From NCBI GenBank assembly GCA_963675755.2, contig CAXXMD010000003.1, positions 544,001 to 608,000 on the forward strand: DNA of 64,000 nt, read 5' to 3'. The notes under the pieces are model-generated. The model made no database searches, was not told where the DNA came from, and saw nothing but the letters and a program-made list of their open reading frames with translations. This stretch comes from a bacterium (lineage in GTDB: Bacteria > Zhuqueibacterota > Zhuqueibacteria > Residuimicrobiales > Krinioviventaceae). Positions 38,521 through 60,067 of the stretch are shown here, in pieces. A program made the position numbers and the translations under genes. Within the stretch, counting starts at the first letter, position 1. Each line of letters starts with the position of its first letter.

Positions 38521-38601
38521 CAGCCGCAAGGCACATCAAGATAAAAGATTTTTATTGCATCTTGATAAAAAAAGCACTAAGTTGTTAGTGCAAACCCAAA
38601 C

Positions 38602-38678
38602 GGGGTCGTGGTGCAGATGGTTAGCACATCGGCCTGTCAAGCCGAAGGTCGCGGGTTCAAGTCCCGTCGGCCCCGCCA
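38602..38678 (+). tRNA. tRNA-Asp (GTC), integration target of the island
   Basis: GGGGTCG acceptor stem, anticodon arm TCGGC-CTGTCAA-GCCGA, GGTTCAA T-loop, 3' CCA. Confidence 0.95.
38628..38676 (+). repeat. att direct repeat (tRNA-proximal), 49 bp
   Basis: ATCGGCCTGTCAAGCCGAAGGTCGCGGGTTCAAGTCCCGTCGGCCCCGC, identical at 61168-61216. Confidence 0.95.
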
Positions 38679-38759
38679 TAAATTAAGCAGAATCAATCGA
38701 TTACAGTGATTACTCACTCGGCTTAATTTACATCAATTAGTACCAGTTTGTACCTCTAC

Positions 38760-39188: not shown

Positions 39189-40211
39189 TTAATTGCTTTT
39201 TAAATCATTTAAGTGTTTTAAGTTTTCTTTATACCAATGTTCAAATTCAGGAGGTCGTGGTTCTGGACACTTTTCAAAAATAATATTTGCTTCCTCTCTA
39301 TGCATTATTGCTGTTTTAATATCGTTCAATTTTCCAAATTGTTCTCCAATAAAACTTTTAATTTTTGCTTTTTCCAAATATAGGTTTGGATTTGTTTGTG
39401 TTTTTGTATCAAAATCAAGCATCTTATAGGCTTTTTCCAAATTAGCTGTTCCCAATGTTAACATATTCTTACCACCCCAATGGCCTTGTGCTATTCCCAA
39501 GTTCATAAAAGGCATAAAATGATTGGGATCATTATAAGTTGCAATAGTTGAAAAGAAAATTGAACGATTTAATCTTTCAAGGTCATTAAATCCCCACTCC
39601 TCTCTTGGGATATCATAATCTTTATATGACAAATATAGAAAACCCAAAAAGGAAGCAGCAACCCAGTTATTATTATCAGCATCATATGCTTTATGATATT
39701 GTATTAATGATTCATTATATCTTTTTTGATTAAATAATGAAAAGGCACGTTGTGCATAATAGCGAGAAATGTTTTCCGTTTTTATTTCTGCAGAACTTCC
39801 ATCTGGCGTATTAATTGATCCAAAATAATTATTTACTTGATTATTTTGTTGATTAACTTGTAAAAATGTTAAAATAGATTCTCGAAGATTATCAATTGAT
39901 TTCTCTAGATTCTTTAAATTTATTTTTAAAAAATTTCCAACACTCAAACTTTCAATAAAAGGCAAAAAAAGTAAACCAATAAAAAGGAATAAAAGTGTAA
40001 TACCATAAAACGAATTGATTCTTTCAAAATCATTAATAAATACTGTAAATACAATAATTAAAGAGAATAACCAAATAAACACAAAAGCACGTTTTTTTTT
40101 ATCGTTTCTTATTTCAAAAGGTATCAATAAAAATAAACCCAATGGATATAAAATCATTACTGTTATAAGTAATAATACTATTACTTGTGGCCATGTTGGT
40201 AATAAAAACAT
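39189..40211 (-). CDS. Membrane-anchored TPR-like protein
   Basis: About 3 N-terminal TM segments; TPR-like YNESLIQYHKAYDAD and PFMNLGIA; GAGG RBS. Confidence 0.7.
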   Translation of the reverse strand: MFLLPTWPQVIVLLLITVMILYPLGLFLLIPFEIRNDKKKRAFVFIWLFSLIIVFTVFINDFERINSFYGITLLFLFIGLLFLPFIESLSVGNFLKINLKNLEKSIDNLRESILTFLQVNQQNNQVNNYFGSINTPDGSSAEIKTENISRYYAQRAFSLFNQKRYNESLIQYHKAYDADNNNWVAASFLGFLYLSYKDYDIPREEWGFNDLERLNRSIFFSTIATYNDPNHFMPFMNLGIAQGHWGGKNMLTLGTANLEKAYKMLDFDTKTQTNPNLYLEKAKIKSFIGEQFGKLNDIKTAIMHREEANIIFEKCPEPRPPEFEHWYKENLKHLNDLKSN

Positions 40212-40493: not shown

Positions 40494-41723
40494 CTAATCA
40501 ATTTGTTGTCTTAATATTTCATAATATAAATTGATTAACACTGATCGGGCTTGCAGAGAATATTTTAAATCAGTGAATTTATCCGATTGGTCAAACCATT
40601 TTTCTGAGTAAGAGCCATCAATAATAGAAGTTAATTCGATATCAAATAACTCTCGAATAATTTTCTCTTCATATTCCAATTGTTTTGTCCAAAATGTGTA
40701 AATATAGTTTTCATCAAAATTTTCTTCATAATTACTTTTTGGTATTTTTACATGTTTGTGTAAAGAATCCTTTACGGGTTGCGATTCGTTTAATGCAATT
40801 ATCAGTTCATCTATATTTATCCTATTAATAATGTTTACAATTTTTTGCTCTGATTCATTTTTTAGTTTGTTATAATTTGTCATAAAAGTATTAAATTCAT
40901 TTTTTATCTTTAAATAGTCTTTTCTAAATTTTTTTAATTCTTTATTTCTTTCATTTTGTTCATAATTTACTTTTTCTAAATTTATGTTTTGCTTTTCAAT
41001 TTTTTCCTCATACTCTTTTTTTAAATCATTTATTTTATCTTCCCATTTATTGTCAATTTTCTTAAATTCAATTCTCAACGTATGTTTTGAATTTAATAAT
41101 TTCTGTTTTTCCTTTTGTAATTTTTCTATTTCAGAGAGTTGTTTTTTATTAAGTTCTTGTAATTTTTTCAATTCCTTATTTTCTTTGTAATTTTTTTTGT
41201 TAACTGCAACATCTGATTTTTTTTCATTTCTTGATAATTTGTCAGATGTATCACTTCCCGCATTAATTAACTTTTTCATTTCCTTTTGTTGATTTTCATC
41301 AAAAACAATTGGACTGAAATATAAAAAAATACTAATATGATTATTATTTTCAAAAATATCACATAGTTGAGAAAAAATATCATTAGGTAAAGCATATCTT
41401 CCGTTATCTAGTTCTTTATCTTTTACCCATTTTTTATATTCATTAGATTGAAAATATGGATCAAGTAAATTTTTATATTCATTATGATAGTTGTACCAAT
41501 CTAAAAACAATGAAATTACATGATCCATTTGTAAATTATCATTTAAAACTTTATAAATATGTTGTTTATTCGATTTTTGAATTCTAAAACCGCCAAACGT
41601 GCACTTATTTCTTAAAGTCTTTTTAGAATTGATGAACTTTTTTATAGAATCCCATGGGATAGAATCTAACATATTAATTAAATCTTGTTCTTGTTGGATT
41701 AGCTCTTTATAACCTTTTATCAT
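40494..41723 (-). CDS. Hypothetical coiled-coil protein, last gene of the defence operon
   Basis: 409 aa with a long K/E/N-rich central heptad region; 21 bp after the upstream gene. Confidence 0.75.
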   Translation of the reverse strand: MIKGYKELIQQEQDLINMLDSIPWDSIKKFINSKKTLRNKCTFGGFRIQKSNKQHIYKVLNDNLQMDHVISLFLDWYNYHNEYKNLLDPYFQSNEYKKWVKDKELDNGRYALPNDIFSQLCDIFENNNHISIFLYFSPIVFDENQQKEMKKLINAGSDTSDKLSRNEKKSDVAVNKKNYKENKELKKLQELNKKQLSEIEKLQKEKQKLLNSKHTLRIEFKKIDNKWEDKINDLKKEYEEKIEKQNINLEKVNYEQNERNKELKKFRKDYLKIKNEFNTFMTNYNKLKNESEQKIVNIINRINIDELIIALNESQPVKDSLHKHVKIPKSNYEENFDENYIYTFWTKQLEYEEKIIRELFDIELTSIIDGSYSEKWFDQSDKFTDLKYSLQARSVLINLYYEILRQQID

Positions 41724-41744
41724 AAGTTATTACCATTAAGTCAA

Positions 41745-44700
41745 TTAAAATTTTATATTATAATCTTTTTCTAATACTTGTTGTGTCTGATTTGTAATAC
41801 TATATATTTTATATTTAACTAAGAAAAATTTAATCTCTTTAATAAAATCCTGCATCCATTTTTTTTCATCATTATTGACTGCTATCTTCAATGCTTGAAT
41901 TGCACAACCGTATGCTTGAAAATATTTATCTTGTCTGGTTAATTCAATTACATTTTCACGTAGCATATTATAATCTATATCTTTATTTAAACCTGAAGAT
42001 GAAATCTCAATATATTGATCATATTGCTCATAATCATATTCACTATCTGAATTTTCATTTACAGCAATTCTAGCCAAAAACATCTTAAAATTATTTGAGA
42101 AGTCAGTGACAGGAAAATTTATATAATCCATTTTTTTCTTCCCATCAAATAAATACTCCTTTTCATTCAATAGAATTTTTTCATCATTATTTTCTAAACC
42201 ATATATTTTAATCTTATAACTACTTCCTTCAGGGCCACAAGCCTCACATTTGCCATTAATCATCCCATTAATTAAGTGGTTAATTATTTCAAAATTAAAA
42301 ATTTTTACATTATAAAAAATATTAAATGATTTAATTTCTAAAAGATCACCAGTTAATATTTTAATTGTATTATGATATTTTGTTATATAGGGCTTTATAT
42401 CTTCTAATGAGAATATATAAAGATTATTAATTAATTTTACTTTAGGCATATATCTAATTTCATTTACTTTTATAATAAAATCCGAAAATGATATTATTAG
42501 ACTAATATTTATTATATCATGAAAATATAAATCAAAAGGATCATTTATTACTTTGGAAACTTTATCAATTAATTTTACACCATATATCATTGGAGTATAT
42601 TCAATATTAAACTTAGTCTTTGGTAATTCGATTTTGTATTCATGATGATATTTATAATTATTATTGATCAATTGGTTATTATTAAAAATAATATTTAACC
42701 TTCCTGTTGAATCATTATTTTCATCAAATAAATCAACTTCAAACTCATTTTCATTTTCTTCAGTTACACATGCAAAAACAGTATCTCCTTCTAAAATATA
42801 GTCTGGATATTCAATTCTTAATTCTGGAAACACATAAAACCATTTTGTATCAAATTTTAAATCTACTGAACAAATAGAAATTTCAATACGTGAATTTCCC
42901 TTTTCTGGAGACCAAACAGGATCAATTATTTGTTGTAATTCAGTCCCGGTCAAATAATAACAACCTGATATTTTTTGAAAATTAATTTTCTGAAATGCAA
43001 TTTGATATGGATCTTCATCATTTACTATAATATTTAAATATAAATCTGATATTATACTTTCATCAAAGAAAGGAAAAAACTTTAATTCAAAATCATTTAT
43101 CCCTTTACCTTGGTAATTGTTAAAAATCAATCCTTCTGTTTCATAACTTTTAGTTTTGGTAAGTTGGATATTTATTTCCAACGGTTTATCAAAAATCCAA
43201 ATCAAATCATCAAAAACAAGTTTACAATAATCTGATTTATTTCTCCATCTAAGTAAAAAAATATTATAATCACCACAAGATTTTACTTTTTGAATACTTA
43301 AATTGTAAATTTGAATGTCATTAGTGCTTATTTTTTTATAGCAATATAGGATTAGTTCATTAGGTGCATATTTATGTGGCGTTTTTTCTTTTGTGGGAAA
43401 AATCTGATATGATGCAGGAGAAAAAAGCATCAATTTATCTAGAAAAAATTCATATTCAACCAATTTATAATTAATCCTAACTGGTTCTTCATTATTATCA
43501 ACAACAAATAGTCGATGATTGTCCGGAGATGGATTTTCAACATTAATTATTTCATCATTAATTTCGCCAACCCCATGTTTAAAGAGTTGTAATGGCATTT
43601 GAAATTCAGAGAAATCTGAATGAATTAATAGTTTTTGATTTGCCAGGTTCTCATTTTTAATTCGAAACTTTTTTATTTCTAAATATAAATTAGGTATTTT
43701 CTTTTTGTATGAACATTTCAAATTTACTCGAAATTTAAAATCATCTTTATCAACAATGGTTTCAATAATTTTTTTATTTGATGTTCTTATTATCAGTTTT
43801 TCAGCTGGTTGAATAACTTTAAAGAAAATATAACCTTTAAACAATCTCTGTGCATTGTAAAATTCACGTACTAAATCATTACGGTTTTTGGAATTAACCA
43901 TAACTGTTATAACAGATTCAGATTTTAATATTACAACATTTGATCCTTTAATTATTTTATCATAGGGAAGATCTTCAAGATCGTTTAATGTATATGCTGT
44001 AGAAGGTAAACACGTATACTTTGTTTCAGATATAGTATAAATACCATAACTTGGTTTATGATATTTATTATTTTTTTCAGATTTTCCTGAAGGAAGTTTT
44101 ATTTTTTCCCCTGGTGGTTGTTTTTGTATTAGTATTTTTAGTTTATAGGGATTTATAACACCAATTATACGTTTATAAAGATTAATTAATTGCCGTTTAT
44201 CTCTTAATATTGAAATTGGATCAATCCCAGTATTTAATATTATTTCATTTATATAATTGTCAATACAATCTGATAATATCTTATCAGAATTTTCAATATA
44301 CGAAAAAATCACTCCTAGCTTTTCAACTGTTAATGCAAAAGCAGTAGTATACTGTTCGATTTGATCAATTATTTCTCTTAAAAACTGAACGTCTTCTTTA
44401 GGTAAATCCCAAAAATCAATTTCATTGTTCTTTATATCTAGTATTAATTGTTCAATTTTTTCATAATCTCTAAAATAACGCCAATAAATTATAAAAAATC
44501 TGATTAAATCACCCGATCTGGATTTGGGAATTCCACTTTCAAGAATTAATGATTGAACAAATTCTCTTCTATTATAATTTTTGATTAATAGAATTCCAAT
44601 TTCATGAAATCCTACTTCCCAAAGATTATCATAAACATAAGAATCATGATCCCACCCTATATAACTTTTATATAAATTCCAAAAGTTCCCTGTAAATTCA

Positions 44701-45008
44701 TCTTTAATCATTTCACAAATCCCAGCAATTGCAACAAACCTTGCTTTAGTTAAAATGTCATTATCTAGTTGAAATTTTCGCCATTGCAGAGTTTTGTGAA
44801 TTCTTAACATCTCTATTTTTAAATCTTGTAAATCTAGTTCATCAAACTTAATTCGTTTTGGTAAAATTCGATTTAAACTTTTATATTCATCTTCTTTAGA
44901 ATTAATTTTTTTCTGGAGTACATTGTATTTTTCGCTAATTGCGTTTTTAAATTCCAAGTACGAGTCGTATACTTTTATCTTATTATTTTTCAAAACAAAC
45001 TCGATCAA
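41745..45008 (-). CDS. Large hypothetical protein (1087 aa) of the defence operon
   Basis: Long ORF; helical N-terminus with FW...RREFVQSLILESGIP and apparently beta-rich remainder; no catalytic motif recognised. Confidence 0.75.
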   Translation of the reverse strand: MIEFVLKNNKIKVYDSYLEFKNAISEKYNVLQKKINSKEDEYKSLNRILPKRIKFDELDLQDLKIEMLRIHKTLQWRKFQLDNDILTKARFVAIAGICEMIKDEFTGNFWNLYKSYIGWDHDSYVYDNLWEVGFHEIGILLIKNYNRREFVQSLILESGIPKSRSGDLIRFFIIYWRYFRDYEKIEQLILDIKNNEIDFWDLPKEDVQFLREIIDQIEQYTTAFALTVEKLGVIFSYIENSDKILSDCIDNYINEIILNTGIDPISILRDKRQLINLYKRIIGVINPYKLKILIQKQPPGEKIKLPSGKSEKNNKYHKPSYGIYTISETKYTCLPSTAYTLNDLEDLPYDKIIKGSNVVILKSESVITVMVNSKNRNDLVREFYNAQRLFKGYIFFKVIQPAEKLIIRTSNKKIIETIVDKDDFKFRVNLKCSYKKKIPNLYLEIKKFRIKNENLANQKLLIHSDFSEFQMPLQLFKHGVGEINDEIINVENPSPDNHRLFVVDNNEEPVRINYKLVEYEFFLDKLMLFSPASYQIFPTKEKTPHKYAPNELILYCYKKISTNDIQIYNLSIQKVKSCGDYNIFLLRWRNKSDYCKLVFDDLIWIFDKPLEINIQLTKTKSYETEGLIFNNYQGKGINDFELKFFPFFDESIISDLYLNIIVNDEDPYQIAFQKINFQKISGCYYLTGTELQQIIDPVWSPEKGNSRIEISICSVDLKFDTKWFYVFPELRIEYPDYILEGDTVFACVTEENENEFEVDLFDENNDSTGRLNIIFNNNQLINNNYKYHHEYKIELPKTKFNIEYTPMIYGVKLIDKVSKVINDPFDLYFHDIINISLIISFSDFIIKVNEIRYMPKVKLINNLYIFSLEDIKPYITKYHNTIKILTGDLLEIKSFNIFYNVKIFNFEIINHLINGMINGKCEACGPEGSSYKIKIYGLENNDEKILLNEKEYLFDGKKKMDYINFPVTDFSNNFKMFLARIAVNENSDSEYDYEQYDQYIEISSSGLNKDIDYNMLRENVIELTRQDKYFQAYGCAIQALKIAVNNDEKKWMQDFIKEIKFFLVKYKIYSITNQTQQVLEKDYNIKF

Positions 45009-45030
45009 TTAATAAATTAGTTAAATCATT

Positions 45031-46797
45031 TTAAAACTTGAATACATCAGAATTTGTAACCTTACCTTTTGATACAGTACTCATTCTTGTTCCGAAATCA
45101 CCAGCAAATCTTTCATAAGTAGTTTTTTCTTGAACAGATAAAAAAGTAATTAACATCATCCTTGCTCGTGTTAGTGCACAATAATGTAGTAATTGTGCTT
45201 CAACATCTTCCAGATTAAAAAAATCAAAAGCTATAACTATCTTCCTTTCTAATCCCTTAAAAGCTTGAAATGTACAAAAATCAATCACTTTGCTATTATC
45301 TATATTTTCTGTTAAATCATTGATTTTGTACCCAGAAATGTTACTAAGGATTGAAATTGATGACTTTTGAAGTTTATGACCTGAAAGAAGAATTATATCT
45401 TTTGGATTTACATTTTGATCCATTAATTTATTTATTTTTTTCTCTAATTTAGTTACTAAATCTTTACTATTTTCAACAAAATAATTTTCATAAAAACCTT
45501 CACTTGTAATTCCATCAAATGGAACTGTAATACCTGATATTAACGATGAATTTACTGCAACTTTTTTTGTATTGCGACAATTAATTGTTAAACTATAGTT
45601 TGCACAACCATAATCTTGTAATCTAGTTATAGCTTGTTCTTCGATTCCTTTAAAAATATTTTGTAAAGGATCGTAAAAAAAATGCCAAAATCCTTGATCT
45701 AATCCATTTTTAAGTGTTAGATCAAATGCATCAATAAAAAATTTTTTCAAAAGATCTTGGGCCTCATCTACAATTAACACATCAAAAGGTTCAAATTCGG
45801 ATTCTATTAATGCATCCATATAAATTGAAGGGAAATAATAATTAAAGTAATCACTATGATTTTTATATTCTTCCAAGATATTGCTTAGTCCAGCTTTTTT
45901 TATTGTAGAATAAAACCAATGATGAATTGATTCTACATACAAATTTTCCAAAGTATTATCATCTTTTAAAATTCCTTTTATATGATTTCCTAATAATCGA
46001 TTATAACATAGATATAGTACTTTTTTGCCCTTTTTAGCAAAATTAATTGCATTTTCAATAGCAAGTATTGTTTTACCAGTTCCTGCAGCTCCACAAATTA
46101 GTGTTCGTGGATTATTTTCGATCCTCTTGAGTATATTAATCTGTTCTCTGGTAAGTTCAATTTGATCTTGTTCAATACTAGTCAAATGACTATTTAATGT
46201 TAATGCAGTTCGAATTTCTGGTCTTAATTGATTACGAATACTTTCAATTTCTTTTTTATTTAATAAATGAGATTTTATCCCATGTTTAACTGAATAATTT
46301 CTTGTCCAAAACTCATTGAGAGAACGCAAATAATATACTAAACTTTCCTTAATTTTTGTTTTATCTAGCAAAACATTTAACTCAATTTCAGGACCTTCTT
46401 GATTGAAATATTCATCAGGCATTATTACACCATAACCAATCAACCAATTTTTTCTGTCATAATTATTTACCATAATATCTTTAATAGCATACATTGCTGT
46501 TTTAGCTTGTTCAAAAGGTCCTTCCTTTTTATTAAAAGTTCCATTTTTCCCTGTAAAAATCCACTCACCATTTCTACAAGAAACACCACCACCTTTGACT
46601 TCAATTACATATATTCCCAATTTAGAAATGATTACAAAATCACATTCTGCCCAAATTTTTTTATTATGATTTTTAAGTCCTAGTGAATGCAATACATATG
46701 TATCATCATCTAATTCTGATTTGAATCTATTAAATAATCTTTTTTCTGCCCTACTTTTTGTATTTTCACGGACAGAATTAGGAATCATTATTGCCAT
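45031..46797 (-). CDS. NERD nuclease fused to SF1 (UvrD-like) helicase
   Basis: ECDFVII...IEVKGG (NERD); GAAGTGKT, DEAQD, NCRNT, FKGLE, LTRAR. Confidence 0.88.
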   Translation of the reverse strand: MAIMIPNSVRENTKSRAEKRLFNRFKSELDDDTYVLHSLGLKNHNKKIWAECDFVIISKLGIYVIEVKGGGVSCRNGEWIFTGKNGTFNKKEGPFEQAKTAMYAIKDIMVNNYDRKNWLIGYGVIMPDEYFNQEGPEIELNVLLDKTKIKESLVYYLRSLNEFWTRNYSVKHGIKSHLLNKKEIESIRNQLRPEIRTALTLNSHLTSIEQDQIELTREQINILKRIENNPRTLICGAAGTGKTILAIENAINFAKKGKKVLYLCYNRLLGNHIKGILKDDNTLENLYVESIHHWFYSTIKKAGLSNILEEYKNHSDYFNYYFPSIYMDALIESEFEPFDVLIVDEAQDLLKKFFIDAFDLTLKNGLDQGFWHFFYDPLQNIFKGIEEQAITRLQDYGCANYSLTINCRNTKKVAVNSSLISGITVPFDGITSEGFYENYFVENSKDLVTKLEKKINKLMDQNVNPKDIILLSGHKLQKSSISILSNISGYKINDLTENIDNSKVIDFCTFQAFKGLERKIVIAFDFFNLEDVEAQLLHYCALTRARMMLITFLSVQEKTTYERFAGDFGTRMSTVSKGKVTNSDVFKF

Positions 46798-46815
46798 TAT
46801 ATAACCATTAAACTT

Positions 46816-48654
46816 TTATTCATTTATATCAAAAAAACCAGGAATCCGTTTAGTGCTTTCTGTCTCACTTGAACCAATTAGTAATACTCTATCTAATTCT
46901 CTATTAAATTTTTCACATGCAGTTTCTGGTAACAATAAACAATTATGACAACAAGCACCAATCAATCTTTCACCATTTGAATAAGGTTCAGTTTCACTAC
47001 ATACAGGATCATTTCCACACCACTGAGCATCCTGTATTGCCTTTTCAATTAAATTATTAATATTAGTTGATGTAGCAAGATTAACCAGACCTCCAAGAGT
47101 ACCGTCAGAGCCAGGTGTTGCTGTATAAATTAAAATTCCTGACATAACTGGTGTTGTTTCATCACCATCTGAGATATATAATCTTTCTCTTAAACTCGCC
47201 GATGAATATCCACAATCAAGTGCTAATCTCCTGATAAGAATATGTGATAATGAATGTATAAGCATTAATCGTGGAGTAATTCGATATGGAGGCTCAAGAT
47301 CATGCTTTTCTAAAAAATCTTCATTAAGTTTATTAATTAAATCAACTCTTTCATTAACATTTTCATTTTTAATCCAATTTTGTATTTCCTCTTCATTTAG
47401 TTTGAAAAAAATCCCTTCACCATGAATTTGAATAGCTGGTCTCCAATCAACAGGATTTTCAGCTATAGAACAAATCATTTTTTTATTTACTGCATCATTA
47501 ATGTTTTCAATAGCAACACCAAATGGTTGAATCCGGGAAAATCCACAATATGCACGAACTTCCCTTAAACGTTTTACTGCAGAAAATGATTGGAACCATT
47601 TTTTTAATCTGCCATCAATACTTATAGGATAATTTTCAAATTCATTATTTAAATCAAATGATGTTTCATTACATAGTGCTTCATATTCCTGATATCTTGC
47701 AGCACTTTCATCAACAAGAAACTCATCCGTATCAATTTTTGCCCTTCTTTTTGTCCATTCCACACCAACATCTGGATCGATTTCTGGATTATTTTTTATT
47801 AAAAAACTTCTAACTGCTGCATCTCTTACCGATTCATCAATTGAATTAATCCAATTCATTTCATTTTCTAGTATTTTTGCAATTGATTCAGAAGCTGGAG
47901 GTATTGATAACATTGAGGCGATAATGGGAAAGTGAACATTTGATCCACCTCGTTGTAAAGTATTTAATCGTTCACTACATCCTTCATGTGAATAATTCCA
48001 CGGTCGAGAACCTTTACACTTTAATCCCTTTAATGCATATGAATGAAAAATATCGTGAAGATCACGTGATTCTTTACAACTGCTACAATAAACAAACAAA
48101 TCTCCTAAAGAGGCTGTTTTACCTTTTGATTTTAAATACAATTTAGGATTATTACAATTCGAACCTTTTTTTGAATGTACCCAAAGGTACCAAGGAAATT
48201 CATCAATATGCCCCTTTGTGCAAGCTACAATAAATCTAACTGGAGTAACTGGTTTATCGCACTTAAGGCATTTTAATTTACCATCTGGCTCTTCTTCAAA
48301 AGGATCATTTGGTTTTCCCAATCGATTGCATTTTGGACATACATGCCATTTGGGAAATCGTGTACAAGGTATTGTCCACTCCCTTTTAACTTTATCGCCA
48401 TATTCACTAATATGCCCTTCTTTAGGAACTGGAATATTTCTAAATTCCTTCATCTTTAAAATCTTCTGTAATCTTGGTTCATAGATTAATAATGAGTCCT
48501 TTTCTTCTTTTGGGAGATTATTCCACAGCATTTCAAAATAATTAAGGCTTAATGGCATAAATGAACCATGGATAAAATCGATAATAGCTCCTGTTCCATA
48601 ATTAAATATTGCCTGAGATCTTCTTGAACTTCCAATTGTGAATTTAAATGACAT
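46816..48654 (-). CDS. drmB: DrmB-like DUF1998 helicase-associated protein
   Basis: RRSQAI, RFPKWHVCPKC, ACTKGHIDEFPW, GYSSASLRER, GTLGGL, WCGNDPVC, CHNCLLLPETACE.FN..LDR. Confidence 0.9.
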   Translation of the reverse strand: MSFKFTIGSSRRSQAIFNYGTGAIIDFIHGSFMPLSLNYFEMLWNNLPKEEKDSLLIYEPRLQKILKMKEFRNIPVPKEGHISEYGDKVKREWTIPCTRFPKWHVCPKCNRLGKPNDPFEEEPDGKLKCLKCDKPVTPVRFIVACTKGHIDEFPWYLWVHSKKGSNCNNPKLYLKSKGKTASLGDLFVYCSSCKESRDLHDIFHSYALKGLKCKGSRPWNYSHEGCSERLNTLQRGGSNVHFPIIASMLSIPPASESIAKILENEMNWINSIDESVRDAAVRSFLIKNNPEIDPDVGVEWTKRRAKIDTDEFLVDESAARYQEYEALCNETSFDLNNEFENYPISIDGRLKKWFQSFSAVKRLREVRAYCGFSRIQPFGVAIENINDAVNKKMICSIAENPVDWRPAIQIHGEGIFFKLNEEEIQNWIKNENVNERVDLINKLNEDFLEKHDLEPPYRITPRLMLIHSLSHILIRRLALDCGYSSASLRERLYISDGDETTPVMSGILIYTATPGSDGTLGGLVNLATSTNINNLIEKAIQDAQWCGNDPVCSETEPYSNGERLIGACCHNCLLLPETACEKFNRELDRVLLIGSSETESTKRIPGFFDINE

Positions 48655-48677
48655 TATATTTTACCTTTTGTTTTCAA

Positions 48678-51600
48678 TTATTTATCAAATAATGTAAAGT
48701 AAATAGATGGCTCAACATCTCTCATTGAATTAGGAGTCTGCCAAAAGTTATTATTGGAACCACTATCACAAAACTCCTCTGCGCTTCTCATTAAATGTGG
48801 ATATAAAGCTTTATTGTCAAAAGGTCGTCTAGTAGCCCAATATTCAAACCGTTGTCCAGACTCTCGATAATTTTCTGCTCTTCTTGCCCATTGTGTAATA
48901 ATATTTGATAATTCATTTGTAATTTCTTCTTTTGTAATATGAACTATACCAGAATTCATTGCTCTTTCTACTAACCATGATATAACCCTATCAATCTCAT
49001 TAAAATTTGATTTAAAATTTATTGCATCAAACCTATCATTTAATTCTGGGATACTATATCTTAAAATTGAAATTAATACCGCATGTAGTGCTTTATCTCT
49101 TGCCCGAGAAGACCATGGAGTTACACTAGTTGATTCTACTCTTCTATATAATGCCTGATGATAATTATAAAAGTGTTCATAATGGGACATATCCCGAGGG
49201 CGAGATGCATTATAAACTGTCAGAATTAATCCAGGAATTCCTCGTCCAATTCTTGATGTTGCTTGTATATATTCAGAAGTAGCTTTAGGTTGACCATTTA
49301 CAACCATTAATCCAAGTCGTGGAATATCTACCCCCACTGATATCATATTACTAGCTAAGATAGTATCAACAGGAGGATTTAAATCATCACTTAGTTTATT
49401 ATTTAATGTTTTCAATTTTTCTGGTATTTCTGTTGATGGTATTCTACTTGTTAATTCAACAGGTTCATATTGCAAATCCCGTTTATTACATTTTAAACGA
49501 TTAGAATAAAACAATATACTCTTTTGAACATCATCTCGCATCATTACACTTGCACCCCCTAGTTCTCTTAGACTATTAAAATATAATAAACTAGTCCAAT
49601 AAGGATCTATAGCATCAACATCATATTTGTCAGGATTTTCCATAAAGAATTTTGAAATTATTTGAAATGCAGCAATCACAGCTTGTAATGTAAATTTGGG
49701 ACTTCTTCCTCCTGAAGAGATACCAAGGTATGTTCTATCTGGAATTTTTTCATCAACAACTGCAAAGAATGAATTACTTGCATCCAAACCAGGTGGTGGA
49801 AACTGATGTACATCTCTATTAAATAGAGCTTTAACTTGTTGTTCAGCTCTACCAATAGTAGCAGTTGATCCAATAATTTTGGGAGGAATATTTTTAAATG
49901 TTGATAAATAGTCAATTGCAGATTCATAAATACCTGTAACAGTACCCAATGGACCAGATATTAAATGCAATTCATCCTGAATAATTAAGTCAGGTGGTAA
50001 TCCATCGGGTTTACCAAAAATCAATCCAAGATTATTGTTTCTTGGTAATTGGGCGAACTTATCAACAGTTCCAATTATTAAAGAAGGCAACTCTTTATAA
50101 ATCTCCTCATCAACTGTATGGATTGGTAAAGGTTCCCCTTTTGTAAAACACTTTTTATTTGAACATATTATTTTCATTTTATTTTCTTTTTCATCAATAT
50201 AATAATCACAAACTTTAAGATTTGTACTACATATCGGGCATTGTAAAATCAATCTGGGAGTTGAAGATGGTTTTTGTCCATTAAGTTCATCTTGTAAAAC
50301 TTTATACGCATTTAGTTTACGATTACTATCATGTAAATAATTTGGTGTAGCACTTTCTCCAACATACAAACCTATGGAAATTGGTAATGTCCCCAATTCA
50401 ATTGCATGTGCTTTTCTAATAAGATTTGCTGTACATATCATTTTAGCAGCTCTTTGAAACTGCTGCACTGTTAAAAGTCTTAATGTATAACGCATCAAAA
50501 CATCAACATGAGGTTTTATACTTTTTTCTTTTTCGTGCAATCTTCTGTAAAAAATAGTAAAAGCTGTTAAACCTAAATATGCTTCAGTTTTACCGCCACC
50601 TGTAGGAAACCATAATAAATCCATTAATTTTCTATCATCAGAGTCAGGATTTACAATTGATGGAATTGTTAATAATATAAAAGCGAGTTGGAATGGTCGC
50701 CATTTTAAGGGCTTTATATTTGAATATTCAGATTGTTTATTCATGGTTAAATTTGCATAATAAAATGCTTTATAGGCATTATCTGAAGTCTGAAGAATTT
50801 TAATACCATTCCTCATTCGTGAAAGTATTTTATCATTACAAAAATTTAAATTATTTGTAGCAAGTTCTTGGTATTTAATATCTAGCCCATCAATCTTTTG
50901 TTTCTCAGTTGTAATCCAAGCCTGATAAATATCACAAAATTTTTTCAATCCATCTAATACATGTATTCTATATTTCATGTCGGATAAAATAGATGTATTA
51001 AAAGGAGAAAAATCATCTAAAATTAAATCTTTCATACTTGGATGCCCCTCAGCAGTAAAAGAGAATACTTTTTGAGATGGTATCCATGATGTCCAAACAC
51101 TTTCCACTTCATTGTTGATTGGTGCATTCCACATTGAGGCAACTGCATGACCAACAGCAAATTCTTTTGAATCTCTATATAACAGATCGTTAACTTCTAA
51201 ATCAATACCTGGTATATTACGTGATATAATAGCAGAGTTTTTGGAACATTCTATTTCTAATTTAGTCTGGAATATACATCTCTCACCAAGTTCTTTCATT
51301 TCATCAGTTGATTTGTTAAGTAAACTTGCAGTAACAATGAGGTGATTATTAATTTCACGTTTTTTTACATATATCGACATATTATAATCAATAATTGAAT
51401 CCCCGGCAGGTGTTTCAAAAGTATTTTCCTCAAAAACAAATCTAGTGTCTGTGTTAGGTATATTTAAAGAATATTTAAATGGTTGTCTTTTCCAAATTGA
51501 ACAATTATCATTATTCTCACTACTAATTTCTTTTGTATATCGTGCTCCATATACAATTATTTTAAATGATGACTTGATATCTTTAAAAGTACATGTCAAA

Positions 51601-51878
51601 CCAATTGATGATGGTTTAAATACACTATATAATGGTGAAGTTACATCTTCAGAATCATCATCTTCAGCAGTTTGTAAATTTTCATCTTCTTCTGGTTTTA
51701 TAATTTGATGAGGTGGCCATAAGATACCAGTCAGGTAATAATCCTGAGGACCAGAGCCTTGCGGAAGTTGATCTAATGTCTCATATTCTTCAAATGGCCC
51801 CAATAGAAGTTTATTTAAAGTTCTAACAATATCATCTCTCGCCAACTGTTTTTTGGAATTCAAGCTTGAGTTGTTCAT
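48678..51878 (-). CDS. drmA: DrmA-like SF2 helicase
   Basis: WRPFQLAF, FPTGGGKTEAYLG, RYTLRLLT.QQFQR, TVDKFA, QDELHLISGPLG, YFNSLRELG, SVGVDIPRL, YIQATSRIGR; start moved to ATG 51878 after GGAG. Confidence 0.92.
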   Translation of the reverse strand: MNNSSLNSKKQLARDDIVRTLNKLLLGPFEEYETLDQLPQGSGPQDYYLTGILWPPHQIIKPEEDENLQTAEDDDSEDVTSPLYSVFKPSSIGLTCTFKDIKSSFKIIVYGARYTKEISSENNDNCSIWKRQPFKYSLNIPNTDTRFVFEENTFETPAGDSIIDYNMSIYVKKREINNHLIVTASLLNKSTDEMKELGERCIFQTKLEIECSKNSAIISRNIPGIDLEVNDLLYRDSKEFAVGHAVASMWNAPINNEVESVWTSWIPSQKVFSFTAEGHPSMKDLILDDFSPFNTSILSDMKYRIHVLDGLKKFCDIYQAWITTEKQKIDGLDIKYQELATNNLNFCNDKILSRMRNGIKILQTSDNAYKAFYYANLTMNKQSEYSNIKPLKWRPFQLAFILLTIPSIVNPDSDDRKLMDLLWFPTGGGKTEAYLGLTAFTIFYRRLHEKEKSIKPHVDVLMRYTLRLLTVQQFQRAAKMICTANLIRKAHAIELGTLPISIGLYVGESATPNYLHDSNRKLNAYKVLQDELNGQKPSSTPRLILQCPICSTNLKVCDYYIDEKENKMKIICSNKKCFTKGEPLPIHTVDEEIYKELPSLIIGTVDKFAQLPRNNNLGLIFGKPDGLPPDLIIQDELHLISGPLGTVTGIYESAIDYLSTFKNIPPKIIGSTATIGRAEQQVKALFNRDVHQFPPPGLDASNSFFAVVDEKIPDRTYLGISSGGRSPKFTLQAVIAAFQIISKFFMENPDKYDVDAIDPYWTSLLYFNSLRELGGASVMMRDDVQKSILFYSNRLKCNKRDLQYEPVELTSRIPSTEIPEKLKTLNNKLSDDLNPPVDTILASNMISVGVDIPRLGLMVVNGQPKATSEYIQATSRIGRGIPGLILTVYNASRPRDMSHYEHFYNYHQALYRRVESTSVTPWSSRARDKALHAVLISILRYSIPELNDRFDAINFKSNFNEIDRVISWLVERAMNSGIVHITKEEITNELSNIITQWARRAENYRESGQRFEYWATRRPFDNKALYPHLMRSAEEFCDSGSNNNFWQTPNSMRDVEPSIYFTLFDK

Positions 51879-51897
51879 TATAACTCCAATCTGGAAA

Positions 51898-53844
51898 TCA
51901 ATTATTTTTCCATGGGTATTTAAATTCCCCAACACCATGGATAATTAATCCAAGCCAAAATTTGCTATAACACCATGGTTCAGGTATATCATTATAATAA
52001 CTATTCAAGGAAACACATGTTTTAATTTTTTTAATATAAAGGTTATATATACAAGCAGGCAACATTTGATTCTTTAATTTTAGCTCTACTAAGTCTAACG
52101 TGAAGGATTCTGACATATATCCCAAAAGTAATTCTTCACCATTTTTGCATTTTAAATTAATTCCATATAAAAACTTTTCATGATTATTAGGATGCTTATA
52201 TTTTTTAAGATAGACTTTTTGTCCTATCAATTCTTTTTCATTTTCCATGAGGAAATGTTGTATTTCAGCAATTTTACTTTTATCACCCATATATTTACAA
52301 TGGATAATACTATCTTCAATTAAATCATCTTCAAGACCTATTTCCAATTTAATAAGTTTATTTGTTTTATTATATCTATACCATCTTTTATTAGTAGATT
52401 GATTGAATTCTTTTAAATAAAAATTACCATCAATATCTAAATCTAAAATCTTTAAATCAGTTTTGGCTCTGCTTAAACCAACATACAATATTCTACCTTC
52501 TTCATATATATCATCTTGAAAATTATTAATAGTATTTACTATTTTTATATGATCAAATTCTAATCCTTTAGATTTATGAATAGTAGTAATTAGAATCTTA
52601 TTTTTAATATAATTTTCATCAATTATATTATCAGAATAAATTATTCTTTCTCGAAGTGTTTCAACAGAAATTGAATTTGTATCCTCCGAGAACCTAGCAA
52701 CCTTTAATAGCGAAATCCATGCCAATTCAGCATTATTAAACGGTAATTCATATTTATGCATTTGAAAACAGGAATCAAAAACGTCTATAAACTGATTCTT
52801 AGAAAGTTGTTGGGTTTGAATTTTATATAAGACTATAGCAATCCAAGATGGTATAAAATGTGGAGAATTTCCGAATATAGATTCAATTTTATTAATAGAT
52901 TCTTTATCTAGCATTTGGTATAATTGTTCAGAAAGCTCTATAATATGACTATTATTTCTACAAAGTATTGCAACATTTCTACAGGAAATTTCGGAATCAA
53001 TTAGTCTTAATAAATCACATAGATCTTCGGATGGTAATTGATTATATAATTGGGTTTGAATTTCAGTTACAGGATCTTTACTTGTATCAGTAGAATTATT
53101 GAGAATTGTTGATGCTTGACTAATAAGATTTGATATTTTTTTTTCAGATCTTTTGTTGACTGTTAGAATCAAGATATTTAGGTCATTTTTAAATTTTTTT
53201 TCAATCCATTCAACTAATTCACCTGAAGTTTGTATAAAAATAGCAACATCTTTCTCCCTGATCATCCAGTTGTAAATAGCCTGTTGTGGATCACCTAGTA
53301 TTGTAAAACCTTGTATATCTGAATCATTCACTCGGTATATTAAGTCAAGTAATATTTGTACTAACCTAGCACGAATTCCTGTTAGATCTTGATATTCATC
53401 TATAATTAAGTGGCGCAAATTCAATAAATCTTTAATATTTAATTCTTCCAATTTATCTCTTTTAACTTCTTTTAATTCGTTACATAGTAATTCAATATTT
53501 TTCTCATATGTATTACCTAATAGATCAATTTTATCATATCCCAACATAATAAGCATACGGAATGTCCATGAATCAAAAGTGCGTATTGAAAGATACTCTA
53601 ATTCTTCATTGTCAGATGTTGATTGATTGGTAAATGCTTGGATTCTATCTATAAGAGCTTTTACTGCTGCTCTTGAGAATGATAATATTAATATATTTCT
53701 TGGATTAAGATTTTCTTTGTTCAACAACCATATCAATCTCCTAGCAACTACTTCTGTTTTTCCTGTGCCAGGACCAGCTTTAACAAGAATTTTCTTATTA
53801 TAGGTTGATTCGATAATATTTTTTTGTTCATCTGTAATATTCAT
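51898..53844 (-). CDS. UvrD/Rep-like SF1 helicase with unknown C-terminal domain
   Basis: AGPGTGKT, IDEYQD, GDPQQAIY, NKRS, TIHKSKGLEF, YVGLSRAK. Confidence 0.9.
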   Translation of the reverse strand: MNITDEQKNIIESTYNKKILVKAGPGTGKTEVVARRLIWLLNKENLNPRNILILSFSRAAVKALIDRIQAFTNQSTSDNEELEYLSIRTFDSWTFRMLIMLGYDKIDLLGNTYEKNIELLCNELKEVKRDKLEELNIKDLLNLRHLIIDEYQDLTGIRARLVQILLDLIYRVNDSDIQGFTILGDPQQAIYNWMIREKDVAIFIQTSGELVEWIEKKFKNDLNILILTVNKRSEKKISNLISQASTILNNSTDTSKDPVTEIQTQLYNQLPSEDLCDLLRLIDSEISCRNVAILCRNNSHIIELSEQLYQMLDKESINKIESIFGNSPHFIPSWIAIVLYKIQTQQLSKNQFIDVFDSCFQMHKYELPFNNAELAWISLLKVARFSEDTNSISVETLRERIIYSDNIIDENYIKNKILITTIHKSKGLEFDHIKIVNTINNFQDDIYEEGRILYVGLSRAKTDLKILDLDIDGNFYLKEFNQSTNKRWYRYNKTNKLIKLEIGLEDDLIEDSIIHCKYMGDKSKIAEIQHFLMENEKELIGQKVYLKKYKHPNNHEKFLYGINLKCKNGEELLLGYMSESFTLDLVELKLKNQMLPACIYNLYIKKIKTCVSLNSYYNDIPEPWCYSKFWLGLIIHGVGEFKYPWKNN

Positions 53845-53920
53845 ATTTTTCTACAATTAAATTTAATTGATTTCAATTTTTAAATTTATAAGATTGAATT
53901 GTCATAAAATACTACTGAAA

Positions 53921-55522
53921 TTATATATTTCTTATATTGATAAATAAACTATACACGATTTGAGCAATTTGATATGCTAAATAAGGTGGAACTGCATTTC
54001 CTACCTGATGGTATTGTGATGTTCTTGAGCCACAAAATAAATAGTTGTCAGGAAATGTTTGAATCCTTGCTGCTTCACGAACAGTCAAACTTCTACATTG
54101 ATCCGGATCATAATGTATAAAATAGTGCCCATCTTTTGAAATATGGCTGGTTATAGTCGTAGCAGGTCTGTCAGGCAACTGAACTCTGAATCGGTCAGCA
54201 AAAATACCTGATTTGGCATTTTTATGATCAGGTAACAATTCCGATCCATATTTTTCATATTCATGTAATCTTGGAAAACGATTATGTGCTTTTGCAAACA
54301 TACTTGCAAACATATACCTTTTTAAATCTTGAACAAGGTGAGTTCTTGAGATATGATTGCATATTCCATTTAGCCTGGGATCATAATACCATTCACTTAA
54401 AGGATTTTTTTTGTCTTTTATTGCTGTTTCGATATACTCTGAACCAATCCCATTATTTGGGATTAAAATATGCGAAGTAGGGTATTTATCAGAAAATCCA
54501 TTCCAGGTAATTATTTCATTTCTGAATAAATTTACCAATTCAATCCATTTTTCATTTGAATCATTTATTTGTTCATATAATCTTTTCTTCTTTCCATTAA
54601 TTTTGTCAGAAGATATTAGATTACGATTTAATCCACTTCTAATTTTGGGTAAATCCCCAATTACATCCCTTAAATTAATCTCTTTTTCATTTAACTTAAG
54701 AATTCCAGGATAAACATTTAGATCATTTCTAATACCTAATAAAATTACACGGTGTCTCTTTTGAGGAATACCATATTTTTCAGATTCAATTAAATAGTCT
54801 CTGTTATTTTTATAATAGGGTTTATTATTTTCAAAGTCCGCTTTTGTTGTTAGAGAATATATTTTATATTTTTGTGATTTGATATTGTTAAAAACTAATG
54901 CCGGATTATGCAAATCTCTTAAAATCCAATTAAAAACTTTTTCATTGTTTACTTTTGCTGAAAGCAATCCTTTAACATTTTCCATTACAAAAATTGCTGG
55001 TTGATGGACAGCAATAATTCGTAAATATTCCTTATATAAATACACTCTATGATCATCTTTGCTAATACCACCAACCCTTGACCTTCCAGCCAGAGAGTAT
55101 GCCTGACATGGTGGTCCTCCAATTAAAACCCAATTTTTTGTATTATTTAAACTTTCTTTTATTCGTTTATCAATCACTTCAGGAGGAAAACTATCTGCCC
55201 CCAATTCTGCCCGCCATGATTCATTTTTTGCTACTTGATACTCCTTAGGAAATTTTTCAAATAATTCTTGTTTTTTACTCTCACGTTTAGAAGTAGATGG
55301 TTCTTGTAATACTTTATAGTATTCATTAGGTAATTCCCCTAGATTAAATTGTCTGCAAAAACTTCTTAATTCTAGAGTTTTGTGAGCATTTTCATCCTTT
55401 TCAATTGATAGATTAATATCAAATACACGTTCATTATCAATAGAAACTGATGAAAATCCCTCACTCAATCCACCAGGCCCCGCAAAAAGATCAATTATTG
55501 GTATTTGATTTATTCCTGACAT
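53921..55522 (-). CDS. DNA (cytosine-5) methyltransferase (DrmMII/Dcm-like, long variant)
   Basis: DLFAGPGG, GGPPCQ, ENVKG, QKRHRV, REAARIQTFPD, QVGNAV. Confidence 0.95.
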   Translation of the reverse strand: MSGINQIPIIDLFAGPGGLSEGFSSVSIDNERVFDINLSIEKDENAHKTLELRSFCRQFNLGELPNEYYKVLQEPSTSKRESKKQELFEKFPKEYQVAKNESWRAELGADSFPPEVIDKRIKESLNNTKNWVLIGGPPCQAYSLAGRSRVGGISKDDHRVYLYKEYLRIIAVHQPAIFVMENVKGLLSAKVNNEKVFNWILRDLHNPALVFNNIKSQKYKIYSLTTKADFENNKPYYKNNRDYLIESEKYGIPQKRHRVILLGIRNDLNVYPGILKLNEKEINLRDVIGDLPKIRSGLNRNLISSDKINGKKKRLYEQINDSNEKWIELVNLFRNEIITWNGFSDKYPTSHILIPNNGIGSEYIETAIKDKKNPLSEWYYDPRLNGICNHISRTHLVQDLKRYMFASMFAKAHNRFPRLHEYEKYGSELLPDHKNAKSGIFADRFRVQLPDRPATTITSHISKDGHYFIHYDPDQCRSLTVREAARIQTFPDNYLFCGSRTSQYHQVGNAVPPYLAYQIAQIVYSLFINIRNI

Positions 55523-55935
55523 ATTATTGCATCATATAATTTTTTCAAAGTATACTCCCGTTGATCATTTTTTAACTCACATTCCCAAACAACAAATGTT
55601 TTCCATCCCAGTTCGTTAAGCTTTTTCACATTTTCTATATCCTTTAATGCTGTTTTAGAAATTTTCTCCACCCACCACTCTGTTCTAGTTTTAGGCACTA
55701 CAAAGTATTTACAACCCTCATGCTTGTGCCAAAAACAACCATATACCTGAACAACCGACCGATATTTGGGAAGTACAATATCGGGTTTTCCTGGTAACTC
55801 TTTAACATGCAAACGGAATCTCAATCCTTGTGAATGAAGATATTTTCGGACTAATAGTTCAGGTTTTGTATCCTTTGCCCTGATCCGACTCATGTTATAG
55901 CTTCGGGTTTTTTCATCATGCACATCAGTCATCAA
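55510..55935 (-). CDS. vsr: Very-short-patch repair endonuclease
   Basis: RSYNMSRIRAKDTKPE, LPGKPD, GCFWH, VWEC. Confidence 0.95.
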   Translation of the reverse strand: MMTDVHDEKTRSYNMSRIRAKDTKPELLVRKYLHSQGLRFRLHVKELPGKPDIVLPKYRSVVQVYGCFWHKHEGCKYFVVPKTRTEWWVEKISKTALKDIENVKKLNELGWKTFVVWECELKNDQREYTLKKLYDAIICQE

Positions 55936-57878: not shown

Positions 57879-58045
57879 TGTCGTTTTTATAATGTAATTT
57901 TCCATTTGTATGCCGATTGGAAACAACTATCAAAAAGTTTCCAATGATCGGCAATCAATTATTTTTTAAATTTACAGCCAATCTGCGAAAAGGTCATGCC
58001 GATCACCAGAGTAACAGGTTGGCTTTTTTATTAGGAGGTACTAAT

Positions 58046-59212: not shown

Positions 59213-59409
59213 CCACTATTGTAGCCAAGGGTGTTTTTATTAATAAGATATTGTTTTTTAACAACTTTTAATACAGACCCCCTTGTTAGCCACAATAAAT
59301 TTATATAATATTGAAAATATATTATATATCTGGCAAACTTAAATCAGCTTAAAATGATAATTTTAAATAACTTAAACAAAGAAAAGGAGGTGGCTACAAT
59401 AGTGGCTAC
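59209..59409. repeat. Perfect 19-bp inverted repeat around an AT-rich core (putative origin)
   Basis: GTAGCCACTATTGTAGCCA (59209-59227) and TGGCTACAATAGTGGCTAC (59391-59409); extra TAGCCA at ~59287. Confidence 0.7.
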
Positions 59410-59424
59410 CTCAGAGGAGTAAAT

Positions 59425-59670
59425 ATGAAGAATGAAAATACAATAGAAAAAAATACTTTACCATTTAAAAAATTACTAAATGTGATTCAAGTAGCTAACT
59501 TGTTAAACGTAAAACCCTGGACAATTCGTGCCTGGGTATCACAAAAAAAAATTCCATATGTAAAAGTTGGAAGACTCGTTCGGTTTAGGCCTGAAGACAT
59601 TGAAGCATTCATACAGGCAAATTGTATTGAGTCACATGTATTTTGGGAAAACGAAACAAAAGTTAATTAA
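59425..59670 (+). CDS. Excisionase-like HTH DNA-binding protein
   Basis: LLNVIQVANLLNVKPWTIRAWV...IPYVKVGRLVRF. Confidence 0.85.
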   Translation: MKNENTIEKNTLPFKKLLNVIQVANLLNVKPWTIRAWVSQKKIPYVKVGRLVRFRPEDIEAFIQANCIESHVFWENETKVN

Positions 59671-59688
59671 CGTAAGGAGATTCAAACC

Positions 59689-59961: not shown

Positions 59962-60067
59962 CATTATTTAAGGTTGATTCTCATGTTTTTTGGCTGTATT
60001 ATATATTATAGTAATAATCTAATCGGTAAACACTCACAAGTTTGTGTAAATCCGGAAAGGAGCTAAT

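Follow-up and report, generated by a model that had tools for sequence, protein, structure and literature searches.

A probable DISARM variant with a NERD nuclease-helicase and two unnamed protein families, carried on a tRNA-integrating element

The window is a 64,000-nucleotide (nt) stretch of contig CAXXMD010000003.1, from a bacterium of the Zhuqueibacterota. It contains a cassette of eight genes that probably encodes one conserved, rare multi-gene anti-phage system, a variant of DISARM (probability of about 0.68). In this cassette, DrmA, DrmB and a C5-cytosine methyltransferase are accompanied by the repair endonuclease Vsr, a UvrD-like superfamily 1 (SF1) helicase, a fusion of a NERD nuclease with a second SF1 helicase, and two further proteins of 1087 and 409 amino acids (aa). 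These last two represent protein families of ~1090 aa and ~410 aa that lie outside the Pfam, NCBIfam and PADLOC 2.0 models. The cassette combines this gene content with intact catalytic motifs, a conserved linkage and a mobile context. The roles proposed below for individual proteins are held far less surely than the reading as one system. Loci elsewhere carry L numbers and genomes carry G numbers.

In the open reading frame (ORF) listing of the window, the eight genes are co-oriented on the minus strand from 55935 to 40494. Their order is vsr, C5 methyltransferase gene, UvrD-like helicase gene, drmA, drmB, NERD-helicase gene, 1087-aa gene and 409-aa gene. A preliminary description of the sequence had listed the same genes; its coordinates match the ORF list exactly and its identities agree with the family scans. 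These scans covered 13 non-overlapping island ORFs of at least 90 aa and left out two antisense intragenic ORFs and ORFs below 90 aa. The vsr and methyltransferase genes overlap by 13 nt, and a gap of 76 nt separates the methyltransferase gene from the UvrD-like gene. Read as its longest ORF, DrmA overlaps the UvrD-like gene by 41 nt, and initiation at an internal ATG at 51878, with GGAG just upstream, leaves a gap of 19 nt instead. This ATG is the likely start of drmA because of the preceding GGAG and because the alignments of DrmA homologues to the window protein begin only at residue ~26–34. The gene drmB is separate and starts 23 nt past the end of drmA, and the following gaps are 18 nt (DrmB/NERD), 22 nt (NERD/1087) and 21 nt (1087/409). 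Given the start at 51878, the last five junctions of the operon are likely 18–23 nt, the spacing that the preliminary description had given for the last six genes. The overlap of vsr with the methyltransferase gene, which it had also pointed out, is present as well.

Pattern scans with a 10-row alignment of the 1087 family (a 29-row alignment is too diverse) retrieve two loci on genome contigs, one in a Desulfobacter metagenome-assembled genome (MAG) and one in a Smithella MAG, and 12 loci on metagenome contigs. A search for related loci in genome contigs with DrmA alone returns zero relatives. Nine window proteins were compared with the 14 loci by tblastn and with the ORFs of 10 loci by blastp. 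The loci L016–L019 and L021 encode identical 1087 proteins and are counted as one lineage (the L017 group), which gives 11 lineages including the window.

Seven of these non-redundant lineages are on long contigs (the window, L013, L014, L015, the L017 group, L020 and L024). The six-gene core of UvrD-like helicase, DrmA, DrmB, NERD-helicase, 1087 protein and 409 protein is complete in all seven, and the core gene order is identical in six. In three of the four short-contig lineages (2.8–5.6 kb), DrmB, the NERD-helicase and the 1087 gene keep this order; the fourth is on a contig of 3.7 kb that contains the 1087 gene only. In the retrieved loci, the 1087 gene lies beside the DrmAB module, and every retrieved 1087 locus with sufficient flank also has DrmB and the NERD-helicase. 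A 409 homologue follows the 1087 homologue in each of the seven non-redundant lineages whose downstream flank is long enough. The extra genes are thus linked to drmAB in other genomes too, a point on which the preliminary description had staked its claim. Of the eight-gene order that it had proposed to look for elsewhere, the part formed by the six core genes recurs as given above, and the methylase/Vsr pair varies in position.

Full-length identity to the window is 36–39% for DrmA and 35–38% for DrmB. It is 29–36% for the NERD-helicase, 25–30% for the UvrD-like helicase and 24–31% for the 409-aa protein. The 1087 proteins are 28–33% identical over their full length; the short contigs hold partial copies that span the better-conserved N-terminal region and are 37–46% identical. 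The G+C content (GC) of the other loci is 0.35–0.55, compared with 0.24–0.32 in the window locus. Identities this low and GC this different, with the linkage kept, imply that the six genes have been inherited together in distant hosts, the Desulfobacter and Smithella MAGs among them.

A C5 methyltransferase adjoins the core in all six lineages with enough flank. Orthologues of the window methyltransferase are present in both MAGs (G167 and G168; 52% identity) and in L024 (47.6%). The L017 group (L017, 15397–17138) and L020 (15942–17674) have a different C5 methylase of 421–422 aa, fused to a helix-turn-helix (HTH) domain, and a Vsr alongside it. The six-gene core has therefore stayed in place through an exchange of the methylase/Vsr module. 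Three lineages, L013, the L017 group and L020, have a Vsr homologue next to the cassette. The methylase and Vsr lie either upstream or downstream of the core.

The 1087 family is rare. Of the 64 cluster representatives that a HMMER search against 1.84 billion representatives finds, 28 have an E<=1e-30. The majority of these are full-length (~1080–1100 aa), at ~30% identity; a word-index search with the 1087-aa protein finds one remote match only. The family is not found in 40 relatives of the window genome (41 genomes searched including its own) and from 400 other sampled genomes of the phylum of the Desulfobacter MAG (401 searched including the centre genome). No member is found in viral contigs, and none in plasmids (tblastn). 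Among 167 sampled genomes of the window's own phylum, DrmA is matched in seven (E<=1e-20) and the NERD-helicase profile in three. In the four DrmA neighbourhoods that were read, the extra genes are missing beside DrmA and DrmB; a DrmE C-terminal domain is encoded upstream and Vsr downstream in one of the four. Because the variant is rare, its ecological weight is probably small.

The predicted products of the window cassette include the DISARM core, which consists of DrmA, DrmB and a linked methyltransferase. As outlined in two published accounts that summarise Ofir et al. (2018), class 1 DISARM has the SNF2 helicase drmD, the adenine methylase drmMI and drmABC, and class 2 has the order drmE-drmA-drmB-drmC-drmMII (PMC9142583, PMC11529989). 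The window DrmA matches NF038325 (DISARM_DrmAS) with 950 bits, exactly the curated cut-off of 950, and the PADLOC DrmA model PDLC02575 at 2.5e-238. DrmB scores 496 bits with NF038324, well above its cut-off of 240, and also matches PF09369 (MZB) at 1.3e-9 and PADLOC DrmB at 1.3e-91. The methyltransferase matches PF00145 (2.2e-51), and its best PADLOC model is DrmMII (6.6e-94). Its translation contains the canonical C5 motifs FAGPGG, PPCQ, ENV, QKRHR and GNAVPP, and it is predicted to be active. Vsr matches PF03852 (1.3e-31) and PADLOC Vsr (2.3e-38).

The UvrD-like helicase matches PF00580 at 7.5e-28 and also has matches to PADLOC models of the RTasHel and GajB types. Its Walker A motif GPGTGKT (residues 24–30) and its DExQD motif (149–153) are invariant in all six aligned cassette orthologues. 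A conserved C-terminal extension of ~150 residues (~490–648) has no family assignment. The gene lies upstream of drmA, the place of drmE in class 2. In an hhalign comparison, the stretch AILARTNNQ... of DrmE, 20 residues long, aligns with the UvrD-like motif AILCRTNGQ... at a probability of only 1.8%. Judged by this motif, DrmE might be a degenerate SF1 helicase.

The NERD-helicase matches PF08378 at 2e-11 and the PADLOC model RTasNERD-Hel at 4.7e-51 across its full length (residues 1–554). It also matches the PADLOC models C3a187 'NERD+UvrD' and AbiO. The PD-(D/E)xK signature (E51, D53 and E66-V-K68) is invariant in 9/9 orthologues, as are the Walker A motif G236-T243 and the motif D344-E345-x-Q347-D348. 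The nuclease and helicase domains are both predicted to be active. The gene directly follows drmB, which is the usual drmC slot. According to Bell et al. (2025), the gene for the DUF1998 protein is as a rule immediately followed by that for DrmC.

The same NERD-helicase family occurs in L034 (G151:C46, 1–7716). The order there is C5 methylase, DrmE (869 aa, PF24957, 3471–6080), NERD + SF1 helicase (597 aa) and DrmA. The NERD-helicase of L034 matches the cassette profile with an E of 9.3e-132, and the contig stops inside drmA. Its place between DrmE and DrmA in G151 shows the NERD-helicase to be a recurrent accessory of DISARM, usable at different positions. A separate observation concerns L009 (G159:C10). 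At 1134–1301, between a DrmE-like ORF and drmA, this locus has a 56-aa tblastn match to the C-terminus of the NERD-helicase (43% identity, E 1.4e-8). The fragment may be a decayed remnant of an arrangement of the G151 type.

The 1087-aa protein has zero matches in Pfam, NCBIfam and PADLOC. The members of its family that were looked up are unnamed or labelled 'hypothetical protein', none of ten members matches a PADLOC model at E<=1, and a sequence-profile search of the PDB gives no match. The AlphaFold2 model is confident (predicted local distance difference test, pLDDT, 85.3; predicted template modelling score, pTM, 0.56) and has three regions. These are a helical N-domain (~1–295), an array of immunoglobulin (Ig)-like beta-sandwiches (~300–1005) and a TPR-like helical end (~1006–1083). 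In the family alignment, the N-domain is the best-conserved part, and a search for shorter proteins that share it (residues 1–300) finds none. Foldseek and VIA-align match the model only to Ig-like or macroglobulin-type sandwich arrays and to TPR hairpins. The Foldseek matches include complement C5/C3, at E 8e-9 with a TM of only ~0.1, and phage Big/Ig-domain proteins. No catalytic fold is recognised by these fold searches, which barely covered the N-domain, and the protein is not put forward as having a new fold.

The 409-aa protein has no real match in Pfam, NCBIfam, PADLOC or PHROGs; the sole exception is a coiled-coil-type match to SMC (3.5e-4, 18 bits). The PDB profile search of its family gives coiled-coil noise only. 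In its model (pLDDT 78.6), a helical N-domain (1–155) and a helical C-domain (304–407) appear to be joined by a single long helix (179–301) that would form a coiled coil, and fold searches give generic helical matches only. The best scores in the ESM Atlas are sub-threshold for both proteins (0.77 for the 1087-aa and 0.78 for the 409-aa protein). The sub-threshold clusters of the 1087-aa protein contain YjiT_N in 11–21% of their members. Neither result is relied on. A complex prediction for the 1087[1-300] and 1087[1000-1087] fragments with the 409-aa protein has a score of 0.01 (mark 0.32) and is given no weight either way.

Two homologues contain additional domains. The 409 homologue of Smithella (L014, 4542–6164), which is 540 aa by its longest ORF, has a C-terminal helix-hairpin-helix domain of the RNA polymerase alpha-CTD type (5.9e-15). 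P0061, a distant 1087-family member of 1363 aa, has an S1 RNA-binding domain (1.8e-16) at its C-terminus; for the eight other distant members scanned, Pfam gives no real match. These accretions hint that the 1087/409 pair makes contact with nucleic acid.

An integrative element of 22.5 kb and low GC, inserted at tRNA-Asp, has the cassette as its cargo and is mostly filled by it. This is evident from the repeat of the tRNA-Asp segment and from the integrase, excisionase-like and DUF3987 genes just inside the right repeat (Table 1). The GC is 0.24–0.33 across 40–60 kb and 0.34–0.47 in the flanks. The genes for tRNA-Val and tRNA-Asp lie at 38446–38678, with tRNA-Asp at 38602–38678, and the two copies of the repeat are 93% identical. 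The 340-aa protein encoded between the cassette and the left repeat was considered as a member of the system and rejected; it has no homologue in the 14 loci (tblastn) or in the ORFs of 10 (blastp).

Table 1. Genes of the cassette and features of the integrative element, in window coordinates.
Feature	Position	Strand	Evidence
vsr, very-short-patch repair endonuclease, 141 aa, TTG start	55510..55935	-	PF03852, PADLOC Vsr
C5-cytosine DNA methyltransferase, DrmMII-like, 533 aa	53921..55522	-	PF00145, PADLOC DrmMII
UvrD-like SF1 helicase, 648 aa	51898..53844	-	PF00580
drmA, DISARM SF2 helicase, longest ORF 1086 aa; 1066 aa from 51878	48678..51938	-	NF038325, PADLOC DrmA
drmB, DUF1998/MZB zinc-binding partner of DrmA, 612 aa	46816..48654	-	NF038324, PF09369, PADLOC DrmB
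NERD (PD-(D/E)xK) nuclease + SF1 helicase fusion, 588 aa	45031..46797	-	PF08378, PADLOC RTasNERD-Hel
1087-aa protein of unnamed family, TTG start	41745..45008	-	no family match; AlphaFold2 model
409-aa protein with coiled coil	40494..41723	-	no family match; structure model
340-aa ORF, hydrophobic N-terminal part, no family match	39189..40211	-	
attL, 3' part of tRNA-Asp, island target	38623..38681	+	59-nt direct repeat
attR, duplicated tRNA-Asp 3' segment	61163..61221	+	59-nt direct repeat, integrase gene alongside
Island backbone	56448..61129	+	Pfam, PHROGs
476-aa ORF, no family match	56448..57878	+	
DUF3987 primase/helicase-like gene	57917..59212	+	Pfam, PHROGs
HTH_17 excisionase-like gene	59689..59961	+	Pfam, PHROGs
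Tyrosine integrase gene	60068..61129	+	Pfam

If the cassette is one system, its parts could act together as follows. The C5 methyltransferase would mark host DNA as self, and Vsr would repair the T:G mismatches that arise by deamination of 5-methylcytosine (m5C), limiting the mutational cost. DrmAB of Serratia is described by Bravo et al. (2022, PMC9142583), in the accessible text, as the conserved core, activated by unmodified single-stranded 5'-overhang DNA and limited in its ATPase by methylation. The window DrmAB would likewise load on single-stranded or 5'-overhang DNA of the invader, with methylated DNA limiting its ATPase. The NERD-nuclease/SF1-helicase in the DrmC slot may be the DNA-degrading effector, and the UvrD-like helicase an auxiliary translocase, the counterpart of DrmE/DrmD. 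The 1087/409 pair may be a non-enzymatic adaptor, sensor or regulator/brake, linking the enzymes to one another or holding them back until infection. A narrower proposal, that the pair is a new infection-sensing or licensing module which gates a DrmAB-guided NERD nuclease-helicase, is tentative and has the odds against it.

Several findings weigh against the reading as one system, and some of them would fit a defence island in which two or three independent systems travel together. On this view, the region would hold a minimal DISARM (methyltransferase, Vsr, DrmAB and perhaps the UvrD-like helicase), a stand-alone NERD-helicase and a two-gene 1087/409 system. In the Smithella locus, the 1087 and 409 genes are adjacent but convergent to the other four core genes and are therefore a separate transcription unit there. 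The NERD-helicase is modular. It has another position in the DrmE-containing, class-2-type operon of G151, and it matches models of other contexts (RTasNERD-Hel, C3a187, AbiO), the best of which comes from a reverse-transcriptase-associated context. In a 10-sequence DrmA tree, the cassette sequences do not form a single clade. Two changes are needed, and one clade appears in 20% of the bootstrap trees. The window groups with Smithella in this tree with a support of 95/95, and the window and L012 sequences have long branches and deviant composition. Against independent systems, the six genes are together in every long-contig lineage at 24–39% identity and at very different GC, the gaps in the window are 18–23 nt, and DrmB and the NERD-helicase are present at every 1087 locus with enough flank. 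Judged by their models, the folds of the 1087-aa and 409-aa proteins do not resemble those of effectors. A set of independent co-travelling systems is thus unlikely. Three further points weigh against a single system with the proposed roles. The Desulfobacter copy is probably inactive, since an insertion that encodes a DDE_Tnp_1 transposase splits its drmA into two ORFs (L013, 3842–5017). All loci were retrieved through close 1087 relatives, and the more distant members (E 1e-10 to 1e-28) lie outside the context survey; the family may therefore also occur without DrmAB. The N-domain of the 1087-aa protein possibly has a hidden enzymatic function, because it is the most conserved part and the fold searches barely covered it.

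The reading as one DISARM variant was also weighed against an ordinary class 2 DISARM in which DrmE and DrmC have diverged past recognition among the UvrD-like, 1087-aa and NERD-helicase proteins. This is very improbable. The UvrD-like gene is in the drmE position and its profile aligns with real DrmE over the short helicase-like motif AILxRTNxQ, but the hhalign probability is 1.8% over 20 columns, and that of the 1087 family against real DrmE is 0.2–0.3%. Both were rejected as candidates for DrmE. The PADLOC library includes DrmE models, and 0/10 members of the 1087 family match any of its models. PF24957 (DrmE_C) detects the DrmE of G159 and G151 but matches no window protein. No phospholipase D (PLD), SNF2 or DrmE family is found among the 13 island ORFs scanned, and the gene after drmB encodes a PD-(D/E)xK nuclease, which belongs to a different superfamily from PLD. 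The loci that were read contain no case of DrmE together with the UvrD-like/1087/409 set. The sequence agrees here with the preliminary description, which had seen no PLD DrmC and no SNF2 DrmD, had expected no complete known system model and had made the identity of the extra genes as DrmE or DrmC one test of its claim. There are matches to the PADLOC/NCBIfam models of DrmA, DrmB and DrmMII, and none to DrmC, DrmD or DrmE. Slighter still is the probability of a mobile DNA-repair or maintenance module that serves the integrative element, built from a YprA/MrfA-type helicase, UvrD-like helicases and Vsr. UvrD-like helicases and Vsr are repair proteins and the element has a replication-type DUF3987 gene; YprA-family helicases also act in DNA repair, as stated in the accessible text of Bell et al. 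(2025). The same text gives the DrmA/DrmB split as a hallmark of the DISARM branch, and the window has DrmA and DrmB as two genes that match DISARM-specific NCBIfam models. In addition, a DrmMII-type methyltransferase is linked in 6/6 lineages with enough flank, and the cassette has different backbones and flanks in other loci.

The means by which DISARM blocks phage DNA or destroys it are still unsettled. In the accessible text of Bravo et al. (2022, PMC9142583), the route of DNA degradation is called a mystery, DrmE and DrmD have no assigned role, and DrmC is dispensable, often absent and does not co-purify with DrmAB. The variant places a PD-(D/E)xK nuclease-helicase that is predicted to be active in the DrmC slot, and it adds a second SF1 helicase and two unnamed proteins that have remained with DrmAB in distant bacteria. 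It thereby serves as a natural experiment on the activities that DrmAB requires alongside it. If the 1087/409 pair is a licensing module, the variant would name the DNA-degrading effector that canonical DISARM seems to lack. It would also have a trigger, perhaps protein-based, beyond the sensing of DNA ends and methylation. Current defence-finder tools probably report only an incomplete DISARM here. The element is a further case of a small tRNA-integrating element with a defence system as cargo.

Among known systems, the cassette resembles class 2 DISARM in its split DrmA/DrmB, its DrmMII-type C5 methyltransferase, the accessory gene upstream of drmA and the nuclease gene after drmB. It differs in that it lacks DrmE and a PLD DrmC. 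It has the UvrD-like SF1 helicase upstream and the NERD-helicase after drmB, and it adds the conserved 1087-aa and 409-aa genes and a linked Vsr. With class 1 it shares the DrmAB core, an additional helicase and a methyltransferase. Its extra helicases, however, are SF1 (UvrD-like) and not SNF2, its methylase is of the m5C and not the N6-methyladenine (m6A) type, and it has no PLD nuclease. The Pfam and PADLOC matches of the nine operon-region proteins include neither an SNF2 helicase (DrmD) nor an N6-adenine methylase (DrmMI). The operon of L034/G151 has the same NERD + SF1 helicase family beside DrmA and a C5 methyltransferase. It differs by the presence of DrmE, and no UvrD-like, 1087 or 409 homologue is found in the 14 kb read, where the contig ends inside drmA.

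The preliminary description had proposed an undescribed DISARM subtype or an intermediate between DISARM and Druantia. The first part is retained and the second is not. ARMADA fills the place of the published link between DISARM and Druantia, according to the accessible text of Bell et al. (2025). As described there, ARMADA type II has a BrxHII-like helicase, a PglX-like methylase, a YprA-like helicase with a Vsr-type nuclease domain and a fusion of a GajB-like UvrD helicase with RelE. The window cassette and ARMADA have in common YprA-family and UvrD/GajB-like SF1 helicases, a methyltransferase, a PD-(D/E)xK-type nuclease and a location on integrated mobile elements. ARMADA differs in its unsplit YprA helicase of another clade, its PglX-type methylase and its fused Vsr-like nuclease domain, and it has no NERD, 1087 or 409 homologue. 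Membership of ARMADA is rejected for the window, where the helicase comes as separate DrmA and DrmB proteins that match DISARM models, the methylase is of the C5 type, and BrxHII and PglX have no match. Druantia is rejected as well. For the DrmA protein, PADLOC lists 12 families, which are those of DrmA, DpdJ and DpdF only, with no DruE-type match among them. The only Druantia-named matches are DruM models on the methyltransferase, which score below DrmMII. Gabija and DRT are rejected in that no GajA or reverse-transcriptase family is present among the island ORFs scanned. The models RTasNERD-Hel, C3a187 and AbiO share the logic of a nuclease plus a helicase, and the 588-aa protein resembles RTasNERD-Hel over its full length. 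These models differ in that they come from reverse-transcriptase-associated or single-gene contexts.

A literature search finds no paper that defines this gene set, although Tables S1/S2 and Figure 1 of Bell et al., S5 Fig and S7 Table of Shield and Fig. 4C of the SAR11 paper could already show the cassette. That it is undescribed, as the preliminary description had it, is softened by two sources. Numerous uncharacterized DISARM-like classes are mentioned in the accessible text of Bell et al. (2025). A 2026 paper on SAR11 describes a DrmC-less DISARM-like operon in genome AG-447-N21 (PMC13712998). By its description, on which the comparison rests, this operon resembles the window cassette in having DrmAB, a DrmMII-type methyltransferase, helicases, no DrmC, a distinct gene order and genes labelled 'unknown'; it differs in that the description names no NERD domain or extra families. 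The two operons may have the same architecture. The window cassette is read here not as categorically new but as a distinct DISARM variant, one for which no formal description was found and in which the DrmAB core is joined to the NERD-helicase, the UvrD-like helicase and the 1087/409 pair.

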